This document shows positions 22,874 through 31,751 of a stretch of DNA of 64,000 nt, one piece after another. Position 1 is the stretch's first letter. Every line of letters begins with the position of its first letter. Origin of the DNA: Escherichia phage vB_EcoM_DalCa; the sequence record NC_054908.1; one strand, 5' to 3'. Position numbers and translations under genes: made by a program. The notes under the pieces were generated by a model. The model searched no databases and was not told the origin of the DNA. It was given only the letters and a program-made list of their open reading frames with translations.

Positions 22874-24931
22874 CTACATTTTGAACTTTTTAGACATTCC
22901 GTTAATGTTAACCAAAGAAGCTAAGATTTGAGAAACTTCATTTTCCTCTTCTTTTGATTCTTCTACAAGGAATTGATTAAATCCAGCCATTGGACGAACT
23001 TCACCAGTTTCCATTAGATGGTCTCCATCATATACTGATTCTTCTAATTGTTCAGAAGGAGGAACGATTGTACCTTCGATTAGATACTTGTTATAAGCAG
23101 TTTCTTTCATAAAGTACGTACTTACTTTATTAATCTTCAGTAAAATTCCACGTGGTAGAATAACTTCAGCTTCTGATGGAAATCCTGATAAATGACCCGG
23201 AACGATAACTTTGATTCGCTCAGCTCCTTTAATTACCATACCCACGCTAGTTTCAGCATCTTCATTAGCATATGTAGAATGACTACCCATATGCATCAAA
23301 TCTTCTGCATCAACAGAACCTTCTCCTTCGCCAGAAAATACTGCACCGGAATCATCTAGAGCCATATAGTTTTTACCATGCTCACCGAAGATATTTGGTT
23401 TAAGTGATGTCGATACGAAGTTCTTGAAATAGAACATTTTATTTTCAATATTGTGACGCAAAGTTTTAAAGGTAACTTCTTGTCCACGGTAAAGTGTAGT
23501 TCCTGGAGGAAGAACTGAACCTTTAGCGAATGCAGAATCCAGCGTCTCAATATGTTTAATAGCTCGTTCCATATATTCTTCACGGGTAGAATCTGGTTTA
23601 CCCAAAAGGAACGAGTTCATTTCAACATATGAATCTGCACAATAATCTTCAATTACGTCAGATTCAGCCTGAGTTAATCCTTTTGGAGTTACTTCAGTAC
23701 TTGCATATTCATATGCCTGAGCGGCAGATTCATTAATCAATTTATAAATGCCATTCATGACAAATTGAATAATAGCTGTCTTTTCATCTGGCGTAGCTTT
23801 AGAACCTTTAACTAAATCATTGACAATTTTCTTAATAACATCAAAACTATTAGAAATATTAATATCAGCAAGATCGCTTAAAATTTTATCAGTTTTATAA
23901 TCAAAGAATTCTTTATTCTTTAAATATTCTTGAGAACCTTGATATGTTATATCGCTCTGCAGCTTGATAGATGGATCGCGTAAACGTGCATGGGCCAATG
24001 CAATATGATTTCGGAAGTTTTCTAGTTCATAATCGTTAGATTTAAAACGAGAAGCACTTCTCATACCACCGATAGCTCCTTTGCTAAAGTTTGAACCAAT
24101 CTGAATAACGCCAGAGTTCATCGGACCTTCTGCTTTATATACCGGAACTTTAGATTCAAACTCTTGATATTTCTTGGCAGCAAAGCTATCACCCTGAAGT
24201 GAAGCATCAACAGTAGAATATTGAGCTTGTGCTGCTAATCGACGACTTATTTTAGTTTTCTGAATAACAGCTTGGTCCGTGCGCTTATCATTTTCTAAAG
24301 CAATAGAAGCAGCAACAGCGACAGCTTTAGGAACAGCATTTCCTGTTTTAACGTCTACATAAACATCACCGACCTTTGATTCAACTTTTGTGAATAACTC
24401 AGTTGAAATAGGAGGTACACCTGGAATGTCTTCTAAATTGGCATTTTTACGGTAAACCATAATATATGCATATTTCTTATCATAGTCCCAGATTTCCTTT
24501 AAAAGAACATATCGACCTGCTCCTTTAGTACGTACTAAACGGTCAGCAATAACTTGCATTTGACGAGCTGCGCCATTTGTTTTACTTTTTAGTACGCGGA
24601 ATAGGCATGCGTCGATTTTATACTGTTTCATTGTTTGAAGAGCAGTATCAAAAACGGCATTAATGACACCAATTGGATTTCCACCCAAGTTTCTAAGTTT
24701 AACCAGTGATAGTTTCTCATTAACACCTATCATTACGATATGCATCATTTTATCGCCTGGCTTAACGTTTTTATTCGTATCACCACCAGAGGTGTATGTA
24801 CAAAATCTAAATCCAGGAAGCACGCTTTCTTCGCCGGCTTGAATAGCAAAAATTTGTGGTATTTTATGCTTAGGATTTAAGTTAACAACCGGCGCCGAAG
24901 CGCCGTCAAATAATTCTGTAATAAGTTCCAT
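22874..24931 (-). CDS. Alt-like mono-ADP-ribosyltransferase paralogue (685 aa)
   Basis: N-terminus MELITELFD... near-identical to the neighbouring Alt; R-S-E motifs (TLYRGQ, FVSTSL, EAEVILPRG). Confidence 0.8.
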   Translation of the reverse strand: MELITELFDGASAPVVNLNPKHKIPQIFAIQAGEESVLPGFRFCTYTSGGDTNKNVKPGDKMMHIVMIGVNEKLSLVKLRNLGGNPIGVINAVFDTALQTMKQYKIDACLFRVLKSKTNGAARQMQVIADRLVRTKGAGRYVLLKEIWDYDKKYAYIMVYRKNANLEDIPGVPPISTELFTKVESKVGDVYVDVKTGNAVPKAVAVAASIALENDKRTDQAVIQKTKISRRLAAQAQYSTVDASLQGDSFAAKKYQEFESKVPVYKAEGPMNSGVIQIGSNFSKGAIGGMRSASRFKSNDYELENFRNHIALAHARLRDPSIKLQSDITYQGSQEYLKNKEFFDYKTDKILSDLADINISNSFDVIKKIVNDLVKGSKATPDEKTAIIQFVMNGIYKLINESAAQAYEYASTEVTPKGLTQAESDVIEDYCADSYVEMNSFLLGKPDSTREEYMERAIKHIETLDSAFAKGSVLPPGTTLYRGQEVTFKTLRHNIENKMFYFKNFVSTSLKPNIFGEHGKNYMALDDSGAVFSGEGEGSVDAEDLMHMGSHSTYANEDAETSVGMVIKGAERIKVIVPGHLSGFPSEAEVILPRGILLKINKVSTYFMKETAYNKYLIEGTIVPPSEQLEESVYDGDHLMETGEVRPMAGFNQFLVEESKEEENEVSQILASLVNINGMSKKFKM

Positions 24932-24934
24932 GAT

Positions 24935-26992
24935 TTATCCTTGAACGAACTTGTAAGGCATGTTTGCAATATCTATACAAGACGCAATAATTCCAAGAGA
25001 TGATTCTACTTTCTGTTTAACATTTGATGAAACAAATGATGCAAAGTCAACTCTGTCTTCTACTTCAATATCACCTGTCATTGCAACCAATTCACCAGTT
25101 TCCATTAAATGGTCTCCGTCATAGATTACCGATTCGGTGAGCTCTTCCGTGGTCATAACTTCAGCTTGAATAAGCTTGTTGTTAGTTTTAACTGTTCCAT
25201 CATTGTAAGATGCATCAGTTATTTTATTAACTTTGACCATTAATCCACGTGGCAAAATAACTTCCATTTCATTTGAAGGCGCTAAACTTCCACCGGGTAA
25301 AACAACATTGACTTTATCAGCCCCAGTAATAACCCATCCAATTCCGACTAAATTATCGCTAGAATTAACAAGCCCTTCATCATTTTTATCGATAGAAATG
25401 TTTAGACGCTTTTCATCTGGTAAAACACCAACAGCTGAATCAGTCATCCAAGTACCAAAAATGTTTGGATATAATGATGTTGATACAAAATTTCTAAAAT
25501 AAAAAACTCGATTTTTTACCAATGCTTCATATATTGAAGGTAACATTCGCTGTGAACGATATAAAGTAATACCTTTTGGCAATCGATCACCATTTTTAAA
25601 GGCTGAATCTAAATTATCAATAGCTTTTTCTATGTCAGATGCTGTCAAAATACTTGTACGCTCATCTGGATTATATAATCCCAAAAGAGCATTATTTATG
25701 TCTACATATCCTGAACCTACGTATTCACGAATTCCGCGTTTTTGTGCTGGTGTGTATTTAGATGAATCTTTATTTTCGACTATAGGATGTAATGACCATC
25801 CAGCTGTAAGAGCATATCCACGTAATTCTCTTCGAATAATCTTTGTTTTTATTGCATTCCAAGAATTTTGTACTAACTCATTTGCAGCATCTTGGTTTAA
25901 ATGCGAATGTTTGTTAATATTTCTTTCAAACCAAGCACCTTTATATTTTTCTAAAGTATCATCGACGATAGAAGCAATAGTTTCTAAAGTTTTTATTGAA
26001 GTAATAGATTCTTTTCGTAATTTTTCTAAAGCTTTATTTTTTATTTCTGCATTAATAATGGATTCTTTATCTTCAGGAATTATAGAAGCTTCTCTGAATG
26101 CCATCCCAGCTGTAACACTGCTAAGAGCATTCTCTAGTGCAAATCCTGAAGTAGAAATTACCGTTAATTCATTAGAATCAGAAATTAAAGGCGCGTCCGC
26201 TGGTTTATTTAATTCTGCCGCTGAAGCCTCAAATTTTTGAAACATCGGTGTTTCAAATCTAGAAGATTCCAATGACTGACTTTGTGCAATTGCTCTACGG
26301 GAAATTTTAACTTTAACGATTACAGCTTGGTCAGAACGTTTATCATTTTCTTGTGCAATAGATGCTGCAATTGCCTCATTTTTGGTTACTTGAGCTCCGG
26401 TATCTTTATTGATATAAACATCACCGACCTTCGATTCAACTTTAGTAAAGAGCTCGGTACTAATTTCCGGAACTCCTGGAATGTCTTCTAGTGATACATT
26501 TTTGCGATGTATAAGAATATATGCATACTTTTTATCATAATCCCAGAGTTCCTTAAGAAGGACGTATCTGCCACCTGAACGACTACGGATAAGTCTATCA
26601 GCAATAACTTGAATTTGTCGAGCTTGACCAGCGGTTTTAGACTTAAGAATACGAAGCATACAAGCATCAATTTTATACTGACGCATTGTTTGCATTGCAA
26701 CAGTAAAAACTGAATTGATATAATTAATTGGGCTTGGACCAAGACCTTTTAATTTAGCAATTGAACCTTTAGCAGTTAATGTAAAAGGAACAATATGCAT
26801 CATTTTATCGCCCATTTTTAAATCGCGATTAGTATCACCTCCAGATGTATAGGTACATAAACGAAAGCCTGGTTGTTCAATTGCATCATCAACATGAACT
26901 GAAAAAATTTGCGGTATTTTCTTCTTTGGATTTAAGTTTGTAATCGGAAGAGTAGTATCTTCGTCAAATAATTCTGTAATAAGTTCCATCAT
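24935..26992 (-). CDS. alt: Alt ADP-ribosyltransferase (685 aa)
   Basis: N-terminal packaging-type sequence MMELITELFDEDTT...; R-S-E motifs (TLYRSQ, FVSTSL, EMEVILPRG); adjacent to gene 30. Confidence 0.8.
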   Translation of the reverse strand: MMELITELFDEDTTLPITNLNPKKKIPQIFSVHVDDAIEQPGFRLCTYTSGGDTNRDLKMGDKMMHIVPFTLTAKGSIAKLKGLGPSPINYINSVFTVAMQTMRQYKIDACMLRILKSKTAGQARQIQVIADRLIRSRSGGRYVLLKELWDYDKKYAYILIHRKNVSLEDIPGVPEISTELFTKVESKVGDVYINKDTGAQVTKNEAIAASIAQENDKRSDQAVIVKVKISRRAIAQSQSLESSRFETPMFQKFEASAAELNKPADAPLISDSNELTVISTSGFALENALSSVTAGMAFREASIIPEDKESIINAEIKNKALEKLRKESITSIKTLETIASIVDDTLEKYKGAWFERNINKHSHLNQDAANELVQNSWNAIKTKIIRRELRGYALTAGWSLHPIVENKDSSKYTPAQKRGIREYVGSGYVDINNALLGLYNPDERTSILTASDIEKAIDNLDSAFKNGDRLPKGITLYRSQRMLPSIYEALVKNRVFYFRNFVSTSLYPNIFGTWMTDSAVGVLPDEKRLNISIDKNDEGLVNSSDNLVGIGWVITGADKVNVVLPGGSLAPSNEMEVILPRGLMVKVNKITDASYNDGTVKTNNKLIQAEVMTTEELTESVIYDGDHLMETGELVAMTGDIEVEDRVDFASFVSSNVKQKVESSLGIIASCIDIANMPYKFVQG

Positions 26993-27027
26993 AGCCTCTC
27001 TAGTGTTTATTCTATTTATAAAATTAA

Positions 27028-27045
27028 AGGCCCGAAGGCCTTTAG
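27028..27045. terminator. Hairpin between alt and the 62 aa ORF (AAAGGCC-cgaa-GGCCTTT)
   Basis: Perfect 7 bp stem with tetraloop; function not established. Confidence 0.4.
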
Positions 27046-27230
27046 TAATCTAGTGGTAAGAGAGTACGATATATTTCAAACTTTGGTCCTTTTTCATAGG
27101 CATCAAATGTTTCTGTAAATTTATTATAAGCGTATGCATCTACAAATTCGAGAATGACTTGTGATACAGAAGTAGAAACATCTCCACCTTCTTTTTGAGC
27201 AATGACAATTGTTTCTAAGTAAGCTTTCAT
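27042..27230 (-). CDS. Hypothetical small protein between gene 30 and alt
   Basis: 62 aa ORF overlapping the gene 30 stop by 4 nt; hairpin after it. Confidence 0.5.
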   Translation of the reverse strand: MKAYLETIVIAQKEGGDVSTSVSQVILEFVDAYAYNKFTETFDAYEKGPKFEIYRTLLPLDY

Positions 27231-28690
27231 AAACCAGTTACCTCATGAAAATCACCAAATACATCCTCGAATGTATTAGCTTTAGTTTTATCTTCACGTA
27301 AACGAATCGCAATCGGAAGAAATAATTTAACGTAATCAGTGCGGCCATCAGATTTTAACCAACCGTTGCATTCGCACTCTAGAATTTTTCCAATATAATA
27401 ATTTTGGTTTTCCATAATGCGAGTACGGTCAAGTTCATGTGATTTTACGCCGGCTTTGTCTTTTAAGCCTGAACCAGCATTTACCTTAATTTTTCCACAC
27501 TCTGACTCAAGAATAAATCCACCTGCTTTAGTAGGGTCTTTACGGTGAGGATAAATTCCTACAATTTTTAAATCAACATCAATTACTTCTTTAAATTTAT
27601 AGAGATTTTTTGAACGAGCATTTTCCCATAACCCATCAACGTTTTTGAGAATAATACCTTCAAGACCTTGATCAATATACTTTTTATAAATTACCTTAGC
27701 TTCATCTAGGTTATTTACTACCTGGTTTTCAATTAAAATTACTTTATCATAACCTGATGTCATTTGTTCTAGTTTAGAAAAACGTACATCATATTTCAAA
27801 CGAAATGCAGGAAGACCGTATATTTCTACCAACGGGACATAATCCCAGACCTGAAACTTCATGCATTGAGCTTCTTTTTCAGAAATGGTTCCCTTTAAAG
27901 ATTTATTGGCGATGCCATTAGATGCAGTACGTGATTCAGCTACTTCGGCGAATTCTTTAGCTTTACTAATTTCAGGATAAGCATCAAAAAGAAAATCTAG
28001 GCCTTCTGGCTCCTTTTCAACTTGCTCATGGTATACCAATTCGCCATCAATTAACACACCTTCTGGATGAATCTGGCGAGCTTCTGCAGTCATTTTGATT
28101 AACTCTTCCTTAAGAAGATCTAATCCTAGATATTCATTACCAGCTCGTGATAAAAGACGAACATCATCTAATTCATCACCTCTAACTTCAGCAAAACACC
28201 GAGCTCCATCAGCTTTTAACTGGGCAAAGGCTGGAAATTTGATATTCTTATTAATGCCTTTTTCATCATAAGAACTTGCAAGCATTTGAGGTTGTTCAGG
28301 AATTAAACCTGGCCAAACTTTGTTCGCAATAGATACTGAAGCACCACATTCAAGGTCTCGCATCATCACCCGACGCAAAACTTCAACATCATCTTTTTTA
28401 CCGTCAGTAATATATCCAGTTAATTCCTCAATTGCCGCATTTCCAGTCAATTTCCGAGTAGCTAACGTGAATTCAATGAAGTCAAGCATATCGGTAAGAG
28501 TCAACATTCCAAAACTCTGGGTAGCAATACCCGGTTTAGGCCATTTCTTGATATAATACTGTAACCCACGAGAATAAGTCAGACGATATACTCGTTTAAG
28601 CAATTCATTATCTTTATTCTTTTCAAGAATTGCTTGCTTCTGCTTAGTTGAACCAATAGATGCTATTTCGTTCAGAATTTTAAGAATCAT
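27227..28690 (-). CDS. 30: ATP-dependent DNA ligase gp30
   Basis: 487 aa, same length as T4 DNA ligase; KADG adenylation motif (QLKADGARCF). Confidence 0.9.
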   Translation of the reverse strand: MILKILNEIASIGSTKQKQAILEKNKDNELLKRVYRLTYSRGLQYYIKKWPKPGIATQSFGMLTLTDMLDFIEFTLATRKLTGNAAIEELTGYITDGKKDDVEVLRRVMMRDLECGASVSIANKVWPGLIPEQPQMLASSYDEKGINKNIKFPAFAQLKADGARCFAEVRGDELDDVRLLSRAGNEYLGLDLLKEELIKMTAEARQIHPEGVLIDGELVYHEQVEKEPEGLDFLFDAYPEISKAKEFAEVAESRTASNGIANKSLKGTISEKEAQCMKFQVWDYVPLVEIYGLPAFRLKYDVRFSKLEQMTSGYDKVILIENQVVNNLDEAKVIYKKYIDQGLEGIILKNVDGLWENARSKNLYKFKEVIDVDLKIVGIYPHRKDPTKAGGFILESECGKIKVNAGSGLKDKAGVKSHELDRTRIMENQNYYIGKILECECNGWLKSDGRTDYVKLFLPIAIRLREDKTKANTFEDVFGDFHEVTGL

Positions 28691-28956
28691 TGTTCATCCT
28701 TTAGAGTTTGGTTTACAGCTCTATTATAAATCAATTCATCATTAAGCTCAGTCAAAGACCTGTGGTACGTGGTTCTAACTTTATTTCCTTGCATCCAGTG
28801 CTTGACGTAAATGAAACCTTGCTCTACACATTTTTTAAAAATTCGTTCGTCTTTTTGAGCTCGGAATTCTGGATTGCATCTAAAAAATTGATTTACGTGA
28901 CCGTAATCACGTGTAGTATTACCTTCATTTTCATAAATAGTGTGAACAACAAACAT
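28687..28956 (-). CDS. Hypothetical protein (30.1 position)
   Basis: 89 aa ORF coupled to gene 30. Confidence 0.55.
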   Translation of the reverse strand: MFVVHTIYENEGNTTRDYGHVNQFFRCNPEFRAQKDERIFKKCVEQGFIYVKHWMQGNKVRTTYHRSLTELNDELIYNRAVNQTLKDEQ

Positions 28957-29810
28957 TAGAATGCTCCTTGGAAAATATTATCACCACTACCACTAGTAAG
29001 TCTATTAAAATACCCTGCGTCGCCAGGCTTAATATAACTCCACGTATGGAATGGATGCATCTGATGTGAGTGTGTATAATATGGATGATATGGATTATAA
29101 GGATTAAATCCAGGAGTTCTCCAAGTAGTGTTCCAACGAAAAGAATCGTTTTTAATCATCTTCTCAATTACATCTTTTATAACTTTTTCACTATCAAAAC
29201 TTTCTTTATTTTCCTTCGATGGAAAAAGCTTATTCTCTACATCATTCCATGTATAAACTCGCTGTGCAGTTTTTGGAATACTGTCACGTTCCCCTCGAGC
29301 CATCCAATAAACAGGAACATTTAATATTTCACTCGCGTGATCGCAGTGGTGAGCGAGATCGTCAATATAACAAATTACGTTATATTTTTCTTTTGCCTTT
29401 TTGAACAACTCTTCTTTTGAAGAATCATGACCACACATCAGTACTTCTGAGAAGGCACCAGGAAAAAGAGCATTCAAATTAAATTGACGATTCAGCAGAG
29501 CGTCAATAGAATCACCCAATGCTGTAACAGCTACAAAATTATAATCTTCTTTTAATTTGTTAATTACACACAGAGCATCTTTATATGGAGACAAGTAACG
29601 AATAAAATCTGAACGATTGTATTTTTCAATTAGCTTGACGCCAAGTTCTTCGTCACAATTAAAGAGTTTACCTGGAGAAATAAATTTCTCATCCTGGATC
29701 ATTTTTAAAATATGTTCTAACGGAAGATTATATTTCTGAGCAAAATAAGGAAGACCTGATTGCCAGCTTAAACATACTCCATCAATATCAGTTAAAATAG
29801 TAGGCTTCAT
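28956..29810 (-). CDS. HAD-superfamily hydrolase-like protein with His/Pro/Tyr-rich C-terminal tail (30.2 position)
   Basis: N-terminal LTDIDGV (HAD motif I DxDGx); 284 aa; C-terminus NPYNPYHPYYTHSHQMHPFH. Confidence 0.6.
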   Translation of the reverse strand: MKPTILTDIDGVCLSWQSGLPYFAQKYNLPLEHILKMIQDEKFISPGKLFNCDEELGVKLIEKYNRSDFIRYLSPYKDALCVINKLKEDYNFVAVTALGDSIDALLNRQFNLNALFPGAFSEVLMCGHDSSKEELFKKAKEKYNVICYIDDLAHHCDHASEILNVPVYWMARGERDSIPKTAQRVYTWNDVENKLFPSKENKESFDSEKVIKDVIEKMIKNDSFRWNTTWRTPGFNPYNPYHPYYTHSHQMHPFHTWSYIKPGDAGYFNRLTSGSGDNIFQGAF

Positions 29811-30271
29811 AGAGAGTCTCTTAATAGGTTTAACACATCAATAAATTCAGCTTCGGTTAGTATTGTATCATCTTTTGTTAGACCACTAGCCATGCTGTGC
29901 TTCAAAACTTTTCCTTTCGAGGCTTGTAATGCATCACGGAAGCCCTTGTTTTGGATCACTGCTTCAAAATATGCATTTGTGTATAATTCTTTCCACGCCG
30001 GGGAGTATCTTGAAAATGGAACTCCAAGCCAGAAGAGGGTCCCACGGTCCTGAGCTCTAGCATAAGACCTTCCAGCTTGTTGAGCGGCAAGCCCGGATAA
30101 CCCAAATATACGACGTTGTTGTTCAACGTTTTTTACCTTGCATCCTTGGAGGAATCCTTCAAGACCTCCAAATTGAATACCATCCATAACGAAAGGCCAT
30201 TGGGCGAAATTGCTTAATGCACATGATGGCCATCTAAAATTGCTTCTTATCTCTAGCTCAGACATTTTCAA
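29807..30271 (-). CDS. NADAR / YbiA-like (DUF1768) domain protein (30.3 position)
   Basis: 154 aa; SNFAQWPF..DG..F...E.FLQ pattern typical of the YbiA/NADAR family; call is from memory, not a search. Confidence 0.6.
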   Translation of the reverse strand: MKMSELEIRSNFRWPSCALSNFAQWPFVMDGIQFGGLEGFLQGCKVKNVEQQRRIFGLSGLAAQQAGRSYARAQDRGTLFWLGVPFSRYSPAWKELYTNAYFEAVIQNKGFRDALQASKGKVLKHSMASGLTKDDTILTEAEFIDVLNLLRDSL

Positions 30272-30464
30272 TACTTATAATTTCAACATCAGCCCAATGA
30301 CCATAGCAAGGAAGACGAAATTCAACTGGCCAGTTAGGGTCCTTTTCTAATATAATAGACTTAACTTGTGGTTCTTCATGTTCATCGGTATACGGACCTT
30401 TATACGTTACTTTATATGTGACCTTAATGTACTGAATTCCAAAAATCTTATTAATTATATTCAT
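30258..30464 (-). CDS. Hypothetical small protein (30.x block)
   Basis: 68 aa ORF, coupled overlaps on both sides. Confidence 0.5.
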   Translation of the reverse strand: MNIINKIFGIQYIKVTYKVTYKGPYTDEHEEPQVKSIILEKDPNWPVEFRLPCYGHWADVEIISIENV

Positions 30465-31418: not shown

Positions 31419-31751
31419 TTATTTTACTAATTTCCAATGCTTCATGTCAAGTTTGCCAACTTTTTTCATCTTCTCAATTAAGCGTTCGGCACGCTGGCGA
31501 GCTGTAACATAATACCATTCACCCAATTCATTTTGTTCAATTTTTCCAACGATTACTGTATTCAATTCATAAATCCAACCAGTAAAGAAATTATGAACTT
31601 GAATTGTAAAGGTGAAATCTGTTCCCATACCTTCTGTTGTTTCTACTTCAACAATATCACCTTCAACTGCCATTAAGAACCACATAGTTTCATCATATTT
31701 ACCATTGAAGCATTTAGTTTTAACTGCAGCGTTCAGATTAATCGTTTTCAT
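31419..31751 (-). CDS. Hypothetical protein (30.x block)
   Basis: 110 aa ORF; GTTTACA promoter-like element and SD upstream. Confidence 0.6.
   Translation of the reverse strand: MKTINLNAAVKTKCFNGKYDETMWFLMAVEGDIVEVETTEGMGTDFTFTIQVHNFFTGWIYELNTVIVGKIEQNELGEWYYVTARQRAERLIEKMKKVGKLDMKHWKLVK

Follow-up and report, generated by a model that had tools for sequence, protein, structure and literature searches.

The two neighbouring genes described here, both on the minus strand of a 64,000-nucleotide window from a Tequatrovirus (a T4-like phage), most probably encode two independent enzymes—the counter-defence hydrolase AdfN (gp30.3) and an NT5C-type phosphatase (gp30.2)—that probably share a transcript with the DNA ligase gene, a reading to which a probability of about 0.8 is given. 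An earlier note, made from the raw sequence, recovered a real counter-defence gene; its further idea, a common ADP-ribose/nucleotide theme uniting the HAD protein, the NADAR protein and the Alt pair, is not supported by the dispensability of gene 30.2 under DarTG1 or by the gene neighbourhoods.

Gene order and transcription

Both open reading frames, 28956..29810 and 29807..30271, are present where the earlier note had placed them, the former being T4 gene 30.2 and the latter, counted from 30265, T4 gene 30.3. The start listed for the second frame, at 30271, is a TTG produced by the rule used for listing the frames; the start corresponding to the one annotated in T4 is, however, the ATG at 30265, which yields a protein of 152 residues. 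The two genes belong to a chain of overlapping minus-strand genes in the order 30.4–30.3–30.2–30.1–30 (ligase)–alt.1 (Table 1). As read from the sequence, the stop of 30.3 and the start of 30.2 have 4 nt in common (ATGA at 29807–29810), the stop of 30.2 and the start of 30.1 share 1 nt (TAATG at 28956), and 30.1 overlaps the ligase gene by 4 nt (28687–28690). The overlaps of 1–4 nt described previously are thus correct for these two junctions of 30.2, but not for that between 30.4 and 30.3, which amounts to 8 nt (30258–30265) with the ATG start.

The operon picture is drawn from these overlapping stop and start codons, together with a promoter-like site ahead of gene 30.7 and, following alt.1, a terminator-like hairpin; it should be pointed out here that both promoter and terminator were called by consensus matching alone and that the promoter-like sites are no commoner than in shuffled sequence. 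The gene run seems to reach from about gene 30.7 as far as alt.1, the hairpin would mark its end before alt, and 30.3 and 30.2 are probably transcribed together with the ligase gene. Concerning the Alt pair, it was found as two paralogues of 685 residues (22874–24931 and 24935–26992), 41% identical to each other; its proposed tie to the 30.x genes is not supported, since the terminator-like hairpin lies between them and alt and since the ADP-ribosyltransferase gene of the Acinetobacter phage Minot runs on the other strand.

Table 1 Features of the ligase region in window coordinates (A1, alignment of 46 gp30.2 homologues; A2, 39 gp30.3 homologues; A3, 123 distant relatives of gp30.2)
Feature	Position	Strand	Remarks
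Terminator-like hairpin 3' of alt.1	27025..27044	-	8-bp stem with 4 GC pairs, then a T-rich tail
Gene 30, ATP-dependent DNA ligase	27227..28690	-	Ligase annotation in matching records; conserved position next to the HAD gene, on its downstream side
Gene 30.1 (DUF3045)	28687..28956	-	PF11243, E 2.9e-64; shares nucleotides with 30.2 and with the ligase gene
Gene 30.2, C-terminal tail (residues 201-284 and stop)	28956..29210	-	Pro/Trp/Tyr/His-rich, predicted disordered; varies among homologues or is missing
Gene 30.2, catalytic core (residues 1-200)	29211..29810	-	Predicted HAD-superfamily phosphatase fold with four-helix C1 cap, NT5C-like
HAD motif IV, Asp150-Asp151	29358..29363	-	Predicted Mg2+ ligands; both in at least 90% of A1, D151 in at least 90% of A3
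HAD motif III, Lys132	29415..29417	-	Invariant in A1 and A3
HAD motif II, Thr96	29523..29525	-	In at least 90% of A1; end of strand 91-96
HAD motif I, DIDGV	29775..29789	-	Predicted nucleophile D8 and general acid/base D10; D8, D10 and G11 invariant in A1, D8 and D10 in A3
Gene 30.3 (adfN), NADAR-family DNA (guanine) ADP-ribosylglycohydrolase, 152 aa	29807..30265	-	PF08010 and identity with T4
His123 codon, third catalytic position of gp30.3	29897..29899	-	Invariant in A2; marks the phage (gp30.3-type) NADAR subfamily
Lys43 codon (AAG), catalytic, gp30.3	30137..30139	-	In at least 90% of A2; codon checked in the window
Glu36 codon (GAA), catalytic, gp30.3	30158..30160	-	Invariant in A2; codon checked in the window
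Gene 30.4	30258..30464	-	Extends 8 nt into the start of 30.3

gp30.3 is the phage NADAR hydrolase AdfN

The protein gp30.3 contains LSNFAQWPFVMDGIQFGGLEGFLQG, exactly the pattern from which a NADAR (YbiA-like) fold had been proposed, and it is a NADAR-fold protein of the phage gp30.3 subfamily. It matches the profile PF08010 along all its positions (1–138 of 138) with 234.2 bits, where 36 would suffice (E 4.9e-70), far above chance, and is identical to T4 AdfN in 150 of 152 residues (99%), the lengths being equal. When its AF2 model (pLDDT 94.3) was compared with the PDB by Foldseek, the only significant matches were YbiA (2b3w; E 5.6e-5, TM 0.67) and the NADAR proteins of G. lovleyi (8bat) and P. 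nicotianae (8bau), i.e. the three NADAR structures in that database. The gp30.3 family profile matches YbiA as well, at E 1.3e-3; family profiles were needed for both gp30.3 and gp30.2, because the single-sequence searches against PDB sequences gave noise only. The Pfam NADAR model PF08719 and the PADLOC models did not score gp30.3, the divergence being too great, and the NCBIfam and PADLOC searches were uninformative for both proteins.

The catalytic residues E36, K43 and H123 are all in place, the first two being the counterparts of E43 and K50 in PnNADAR. The third catalytic position is occupied by Glu in YbiA and by Asp in the DarG1-type proteins, the His defining the phage gp30.3-type subfamily (PMC11125620, PMC11543638).

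A role against DarT toxins, which had been put forward as plausible, has been established experimentally for T4 AdfN, published in 2024–2025 as a DNA de-ADP-ribosylating enzyme acting against DarTG1 (Johannesman et al. 2025, PMC11825919; Toxins 2024, PMC11125620). Supplying AdfN ectopically is by itself enough to rescue phage RB69 from DarTG1; the mutation E36A weakens this rescue and abolishes de-ADP-ribosylation in vitro, and K43A impairs the rescue. In the T4 HIDEN-SEQ transposon data, insertions in 30.3 are lost under DarTG1 (log2FC -7.25) and those in 30.4 mildly depleted (log2FC -1.79), the latter probably by a polar effect on 30.3. For gp30.3 of the window, we infer the same activity from the 99% identity, so that the idea of a phage NADAR reversing DNA ADP-ribosylation by DarT is correct, but, having already been demonstrated for this gene in T4, not new.

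In the proposed mechanism, the host DarTG1 would ADP-ribosylate guanines of the phage DNA and block its replication; AdfN would cut the guanine–ADP-ribose N-glycosidic bond by means of E36, K43 and the phage-type H123, which would free ADP-ribose and leave the DNA replicable again. No DarT1 partner adjoins gp30.3, whose neighbours are 30.4 and 30.2, nor did PADLOC give any match, so that the arrangement is not that of a DarTG1 operon; AdfN is an orphan antitoxin-like NADAR hydrolase, in agreement with the published view that it works like DarG1, yet as an orphan.

gp30.2 as a probable NT5C-like HAD phosphatase

The sequence of gp30.2 is MKPTILTDIDGVCLSW, with the DIDGV motif, noticed previously near its start, at residues 8–12. 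All four HAD catalytic motifs (DxD, T/S, K and DD/DxxxD) are present and conserved, with D8, D10, T96, K132, D150 and D151 retained. The AF2 model of the core (pLDDT >90) places four helices (16–26, 32–40, 46–50 and 54–66) as a cap between motif I and motif II, and the structure search gave 111 matches within the HAD superfamily at E<1e-3, far above chance; the core has the Rossmann-like HAD fold. The capless (C0) core of the PNKP-type HAD 3'-phosphatases, which admits polynucleotide ends, does not agree with these four helices. It should be noted that gp30.2 scores below every Pfam HAD threshold (the best being HAD_PNKP, with 12.5 of the 27.6 bits required) and that NCBIfam offers no HAD match; its membership is therefore based on structure and motifs. 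The profile and Foldseek comparisons suggested earlier have thus placed the NADAR protein above threshold and recovered the HAD protein by structure, no Pfam HAD threshold being reached by gp30.2 alone. Judged by its motifs and model, gp30.2 is a genuine HAD-fold protein with the catalytic motifs intact.

The C-terminal tail is modelled with pLDDT <50 at residues 249–284, holds nearly all the differences between the window and T4 gp30.2, and is lacking in many homologues, which stop at about 196–220 residues. Within this variable tail there is a semi-conserved motif, (G)IEYLxxxPT, which may serve as a protein-docking element.

Kinship with the NT5C family is indicated by the relatives of gp30.2. 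The window protein itself gives no match to PF06941; two relatives that were scored, P0300 and P0346, reach 29.4 and 32.3 bits, respectively, against a cut-off of 24.8, and 34 of 123 relatives match Pfam NT5C at E <=1e-3, more than any other HAD family. The profile of the 46 homologues matches mouse cdN (2jao) at E 0.042, and hhalign of the distant-relative family with the NT5C of Vibrio phage PVA8—a bona fide member with 43.4 bits on PF06941—gave a probability of 96.8% (E 2.8e-10). A search with the gp30.2-like profile collected 1377 cluster representatives. No HAD–ligase fusion (Rosetta stone) was found among the relatives, the long ones being without a ligase domain. One long relative carries an N-terminal domain assigned to a 'DNA polymerase' phrog with a GDLD motif, for which the PDB and NCBIfam searches gave no identity.

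From fold, motifs and family links, gp30.2 would belong to the HAD phosphatases of the NT5C, i.e. 5'(3')-deoxyribonucleotidase, type and depend on Mg2+. D8 would form the phospho-aspartyl intermediate with D10 as general acid/base, T96 and K132 would grip the phosphate group and Mg2+ would be coordinated by D150/D151; the substrate on which the four-helix cap (residues ~13–75) shuts would be small and most likely a nucleoside monophosphate, with the family-invariant W16, R108 and N111 as candidate contacts to base and phosphate. Neither a functional study nor a published activity of gp30.2 turned up in the literature searches, and the T4 reference annotation still lists a hypothetical protein. 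A fuller description can now be given, that of an NT5C-like HAD phosphatase, near-universal in T4-like phages, ligase-tied, non-essential and outside the anti-DarTG1 mechanism, which leaves a clear and cheap biochemical question, namely which phosphoester it hydrolyses.

Genomic neighbourhood and possible roles of gp30.2

The physical coupling of the HAD gene to the DNA ligase gene, claimed in the earlier note, is real and strongly conserved: besides the overlapping chain described here, the ligase gene lies within 2 kb of the HAD gene in 24 of 27 dereplicated HAD lineages. A NADAR gene is found beside the HAD gene in 10 of these 27. Viewed from the NADAR side, only 20 of 82 loci, in a survey whose HMM had been widened to take in a canonical NT5C, have an NT5C-like HAD gene within 4 kb, and general NADAR–HAD adjacency was rejected. 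Also rejected, by tblastn, was the supposition that genomes with no NADAR beside the HAD gene have none at all: NADAR occurs in 1509 phage records with a genus spread like that of the HAD gene, often elsewhere in the genome. In T4, insertions in 30.2 are neutral under DarTG1 (log2FC -0.12, p 0.61, 71 sites) as well as on K-12, in data that represent one defence system, one host and one medium and that would not reveal a redundant role. The neutral insertions, the ratio of 24 to 10 among the 27 lineages and the 20 of 82 NADAR loci are the grounds for regarding 30.2 and 30.3 as independent. Gene 30.2 is thus an accessory gene, non-essential and almost universal among Straboviridae, that is kept by the ligase and other replication/repair genes; it probably plays no part in DarTG1 counter-defence, and where it adjoins adfN, in T4-type phages, this would reflect gene order, not a common pathway.

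A two-step pathway, in which AdfN frees ADP-ribose (or a phosphorylated derivative) and gp30.2 then detoxifies or recycles what was freed, or else a nucleotide derived from it, has to be seen against the same data. Insertions in 30.2 are cost-free under the system that eliminates those in 30.3, AdfN by itself suffices for the RB69 rescue, many Straboviridae have NADAR elsewhere with the HAD gene staying by the ligase, and about 60 diverse NADAR loci are without a HAD gene within 4 kb. Such a pathway is improbable, even though the two genes share the ATGA overlap and probably a transcript, occur in about 1450–1500 phage records with a near-identical genus distribution, and have a parallel at a different locus, by gp47 of KVP40-type Vibrio phages, where NADAR overlaps a canonical NT5C. 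The latter may be an independent juxtaposition; with two separate NADAR→NT5C-type pairs, nevertheless, a real functional link is conceivable.

A further rival role is that of a PNKP-like end-healing 3'-phosphatase that would ready nicks in nucleic acid for the adjacent DNA ligase; the structural match of gp30.2 to T4 PNK comprises the core only (129 residues), and this role is considered improbable. Equally improbable is a separate counter-defence enzyme directed against a phosphorylated nucleotide signal or a toxic nucleotide of another host immune system. The gene is non-essential on K-12 yet kept in about 1450 phage genomes, the early region is rich in anti-defence genes such as adfN, and the variable, fast-evolving tail is typical of host–phage conflict proteins; on the other hand, 30.2 is absent from the HIDEN-SEQ main text and never highlighted among its hits, the coverage for this gene being two resampling sheets, one of them that for DarTG1. 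PADLOC is silent on gp30.2, as it would be expected to be for an anti-defence gene. Unlikely, finally, is that gp30.2 defines a large, phage-centred branch of NT5C-like phosphatases with a specific role of its own, kept by the ligase and replication/repair genes across Straboviridae; that role might consist in removing a by-product, a damaged or an immune-derived nucleotide hindering replication or ligation, and might involve cooperation with NADAR enzymes, given the pairs at two loci.

Comparison with known systems

gp30.3 shares with T4 AdfN the residues E36/K43/H123, the intact C-terminal helix and the genomic position, and differs in two substitutions only, V103A and M125I (the window residue given first), nothing suggesting a functional difference. 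With the DarG1 antitoxins and YbiA (8bat, 8bau and 2b3w) it has in common the alpha+beta NADAR fold (TM up to 0.67) and the SNFA...DG...E.F.Q.K motif with the catalytic Glu and Lys, whereas it is an orphan without DarT and has His where these have Asp or Glu.

As far as gp30.2 is concerned, it shares with the NT5C 5'(3')-deoxyribonucleotidases (cdN/mdN 2jao, 2i7d and 1q92; Staphylococcus 3bwv; PF06941) the HAD core with a helical cap, the D-x-D-G-V-type motif I followed by an aromatic residue (W16 in gp30.2, Phe in cdN) and the IDD motif IV; it is distinguished by a cap larger by ~40 residues, an extra disordered tail of ~85 residues and a score below the Pfam cut-off. The HAD 3'-phosphatase of T4 PseT (1ltq and 5uj0), in contrast, is capless and acts on polynucleotide 3' ends, whereas gp30.2 has the four-helix cap and groups with the mononucleotidases.

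Identification of gp30.3 as AdfN

The product of gene 30.3, which carries LSNFAQWPFVMDGIQFGGLEGFLQG—exactly the pattern that the earlier note had associated with the NADAR fold—is AdfN with a probability of about 0.97. It is identical to T4 gp30.3 at 150 of 152 positions and matches the Pfam family PF08010 ('Phage_30_3') with 234 bits, and the profile of its 39 homologues reaches E. coli YbiA at an E-value of 1.3e-3 across the SNFA...DG...E.F.Q.K motif. Its AlphaFold2 model (pLDDT 94.3) has only three meaningful PDB matches—YbiA (2b3w) and the NADARs from Geobacter lovleyi (8bat) and Phytophthora (8bau)—so that the Pfam and structure searches proposed as a check bear the assignment out. Of the catalytic residues, E36 and H123 do not vary among the 39 homologues, and K43 hardly varies. 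NADARs are defined by a Glu and a Lys present throughout, the third catalytic position being His in the phage subfamily, Glu in YbiA and Asp in DarG1-type proteins (PMC11125620, PMC11543638); E36, K43 and H123 are thus the features by which both NADARs and their phage subfamily are defined.

The counter-defence role against DarT, likewise put forward earlier, agrees with published work on T4. Resistance of T2 and T4 to DarTG1 was mapped to gene 30.3, renamed adfN; rescue is impaired in the E36A and K43A variants, and purified AdfN strips ADP-ribose off DarT1-modified DNA (Johannesman et al., Nat Commun 2025, PMC11825919). Hydrolysis of guanine-ADPr in vitro by T4 gp30.3 was reported in a 2024 Toxins paper (PMC11125620), and 30.3 insertions are lost on a DarTG1 host (HIDEN-SEQ, the 2025 transposon study). 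The hydrolysis of the guanine-N2-ADP-ribose adducts that DarT1 puts on phage DNA has been demonstrated in T4, and the window protein would, by its identity, act in the same way.

Truncated gp30.3 ORFs of 86–126 aa occur in many T4-like phages (proteins P0104–P0107, P0113, P0116 and P0117), besides the published RB69 frameshift, which suggests recurrent loss or disruption of adfN. The internal out-of-frame ORF 30.3' of the T4 annotation is broken in the window, its ATG being replaced by ACG and an in-frame stop following after 57 codons, which argues that it is not a conserved gene.

The HAD-like protein gp30.2

For gp30.2 (N-terminus MKPTILTDIDGVCLSW), a HAD enzyme with the motif DIDGV had been claimed; the fold and all four motifs were recovered, although the protein alone passes no Pfam or NCBIfam threshold. 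Its PHROGs family, phrog_420, is labelled 'function unknown'. D8, D10, G11, T96, K132 and D150-D151, constituting the four HAD motifs, are among the invariant or near-invariant residues in 46 homologues, which come exclusively from T4-like phages or metagenomes. The AlphaFold2 model, confident at residues 1–190 (pLDDT above 90), has a HAD core in which four helices, making up a C1 cap, are inserted after motif I and before motif II. All 111 PDB matches found by Foldseek at E<1e-3 belong to the HAD superfamily, the lowest rmsd and highest target TM-scores (0.64–0.69) being those of 5'(3')-deoxyribonucleotidases.

An exhaustive HMMER search gathered 1377 cluster representatives of the family, mostly of 190–215 aa. 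Among 123 diverse relatives, Pfam NT5C is matched at an E-value of 1e-3 or better by 34, 'Hydrolase' by 13 and HAD_2 by 10; two tested relatives exceed the NT5C gathering score, hhalign of the family against a bona fide phage NT5C gives a probability of 96.8%, and the family profile matches mouse cdN (2jao) at an E-value of 0.042. All 123 sequences have D8, D10, R108 and K132, and conservation is at least 90% for V12, W16, N111 and D151. In the match to 2jao, W16 is aligned with the Phe following motif I, which in mdN/cdN structures would stack on the nucleobase.

The structural and family evidence for a HAD phosphatase is strong, and the subfamily, as defined by sequence links, is of the NT5C type. 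An active phosphatase is predicted with high confidence and a mononucleotidase with even odds; the enzyme would depend on Mg2+, work through a phospho-aspartyl intermediate and dephosphorylate a small substrate, for which a nucleoside monophosphate is the most likely candidate, as part of the module for replication and nucleotide metabolism.

gp30.2 ends in a tail of ~85 residues, rich in Pro, Trp, Tyr and His. This tail is missing in many homologues, contains almost all differences between the window and T4 proteins, and has a pLDDT below 50 over its last 36 residues (249–284). Among the aligned homologues the disordered tails close with a semi-conserved short motif—GIGTGIEYLNRQPTA in Klebsiella and Enterobacter phages, GIEYLYNRPT in T4, degraded to AGYFNRLTSG in the window—that may be a protein-docking element. 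A metagenomic fusion protein of 591 aa (P0254) has a gp30.2-like HAD as its C-terminal domain; the domain at the N-terminus hits phrog_24943 'DNA polymerase' with an E-value of 1.7e-34 and bears the GDLD motif typical of Pol-beta-like nucleotidyltransferases. GenBank OR062944 names a gp30.2 homologue 'RNA repair pathway DNA polymerase beta'.

Genomic context

Features of the alt to 30.7 region in window coordinates
Feature	Position	Strand
Alt-type paralogue	22874-24931	minus
alt	24935-26992	minus
Hairpin and T-run	27025-27044	
alt.1	27042-27230	minus
30 (ligase)	27227-28690	minus
30.1	28687-28956	minus
30.2	28956-29810	minus
30.2 tail (residues 201-284)	28959-29210	
30.3	29807-30265	minus
30.3' (broken)	29902-30129	minus
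30.4	30258-30464	minus
Sigma-70-like site	31421-31450	

The gene order from alt to 30.4 is that of T4, and the 1.9 kb surrounding 30.2 and 30.3 shares 99% identity with Escherichia phage Paracelsus and 95–99% with hundreds of Tequatrovirus genomes. Both ORFs are present with the patterns quoted for them. The listed 30.3 start at 30271 is a TTG, an artefact of the ORF-listing rule; the T4-annotated start maps to the ATG at 30265, from which a protein of 152 aa is encoded. The 1–4 nt overlaps ascribed to the neighbours hold for 30.3/30.2 (ATGA) and 30.2/30.1 (TAATG), but not for 30.4/30.3, where the overlap from this ATG is 8 nt; 30.1 and the ligase gene overlap by 4 nt.

The Alt pair is also present, as two full-length tandem ADP-ribosyltransferase paralogues of 685 aa that share 41% identity. 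Where the second copy lies, T4 carries just the fragments alt.-1 and alt.-2, explained in its annotation by an old duplication of the initial part of alt. A consensus scan found, as weak evidence, a near-perfect sigma-70-like site upstream of 30.7 and a hairpin with a T-run just after alt.1, promoter-like sites overall not being enriched in it over shuffled sequence; this is consistent with a single unit from 30.7 to alt.1, apart from alt.

The shared theme proposed for HAD, NADAR and Alt is not supported. That gp30.2 and AdfN are functional partners is unlikely, given that on the DarTG1 host versus control 30.3 has a log2FC of -7.25 (adjusted p 0) and 30.2 one of only -0.12 (p 0.61, 71 TA sites; HIDEN-SEQ Extended Data Table 6). 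Moreover, a NADAR lies within 2 kb upstream of the HAD gene in only 10 of 27 usable lineages (82 loci dereplicated at 70% identity), and a gene resembling gp30.2 or NT5C lies within 4 kb in only 20 of 82 NADAR loci, although the HMM had been widened to take in a canonical NT5C. The partnership is retained at this low level because KVP40-type Vibrio phages have, adjoining gp47, a canonical NT5C gene that shares 14 nt with a gp30.3-type NADAR gene. An example is Vibrio phage vB_ValM_PVA8 (locus L085:3007-3961; PF06941), a second NADAR–NT5C-type pair at a locus different from that of the ligase-linked gp30.2 homologue.

The ligase gene, on the other hand, shares the strand of the HAD gene and lies no more than 2 kb from it in 24 of the 27 lineages, so that the stable link, by both locus counts, is that of HAD with ligase. 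Genomes without a NADAR beside HAD need not lack the gene: each of the two is present in about 1450–1500 phage records, distributed over the same genera, and Karamvirus is an example in which the NADAR is ~60 kb away from the HAD–ligase pair. Acinetobacter phage Minot has contiguous NADAR–HAD–ligase genes, a KVP40-like Vibrio phage has two small ORFs between HAD and ligase, and HAD loci without an adjacent ligase have UvsX, gp59, a PD-(D/E)XK nuclease or the clamp loader as neighbours. In IMG/VR contig 3300029986_000086 (L105:3905-5753) NADAR is followed directly by an ATP-dependent DNA ligase homologue, without HAD between. Functional independence of gp30.2 from AdfN is the probable reading; on K-12, too, 30.2 is dispensable, 72 of 72 sites having taken insertions (HIDEN-SEQ).

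The published T4 data show a mild depletion of 30.4 insertions on the DarTG1 host (log2FC -1.79, adjusted p 0.014), which probably reflects polarity or translational coupling acting on adfN, whose start 30.4 overlaps; 30.4 itself may also contribute.

Relation to known systems

That T4-like NADARs are early genes near ADP-ribosyltransferase genes was remarked already by Iyer et al. 2022. With its function published for T4, the central anti-DarT hypothesis is right and the main feature, the NADAR gp30.3, had been described before; gp30.2, itself uncharacterised, belongs to an established kind of enzyme.
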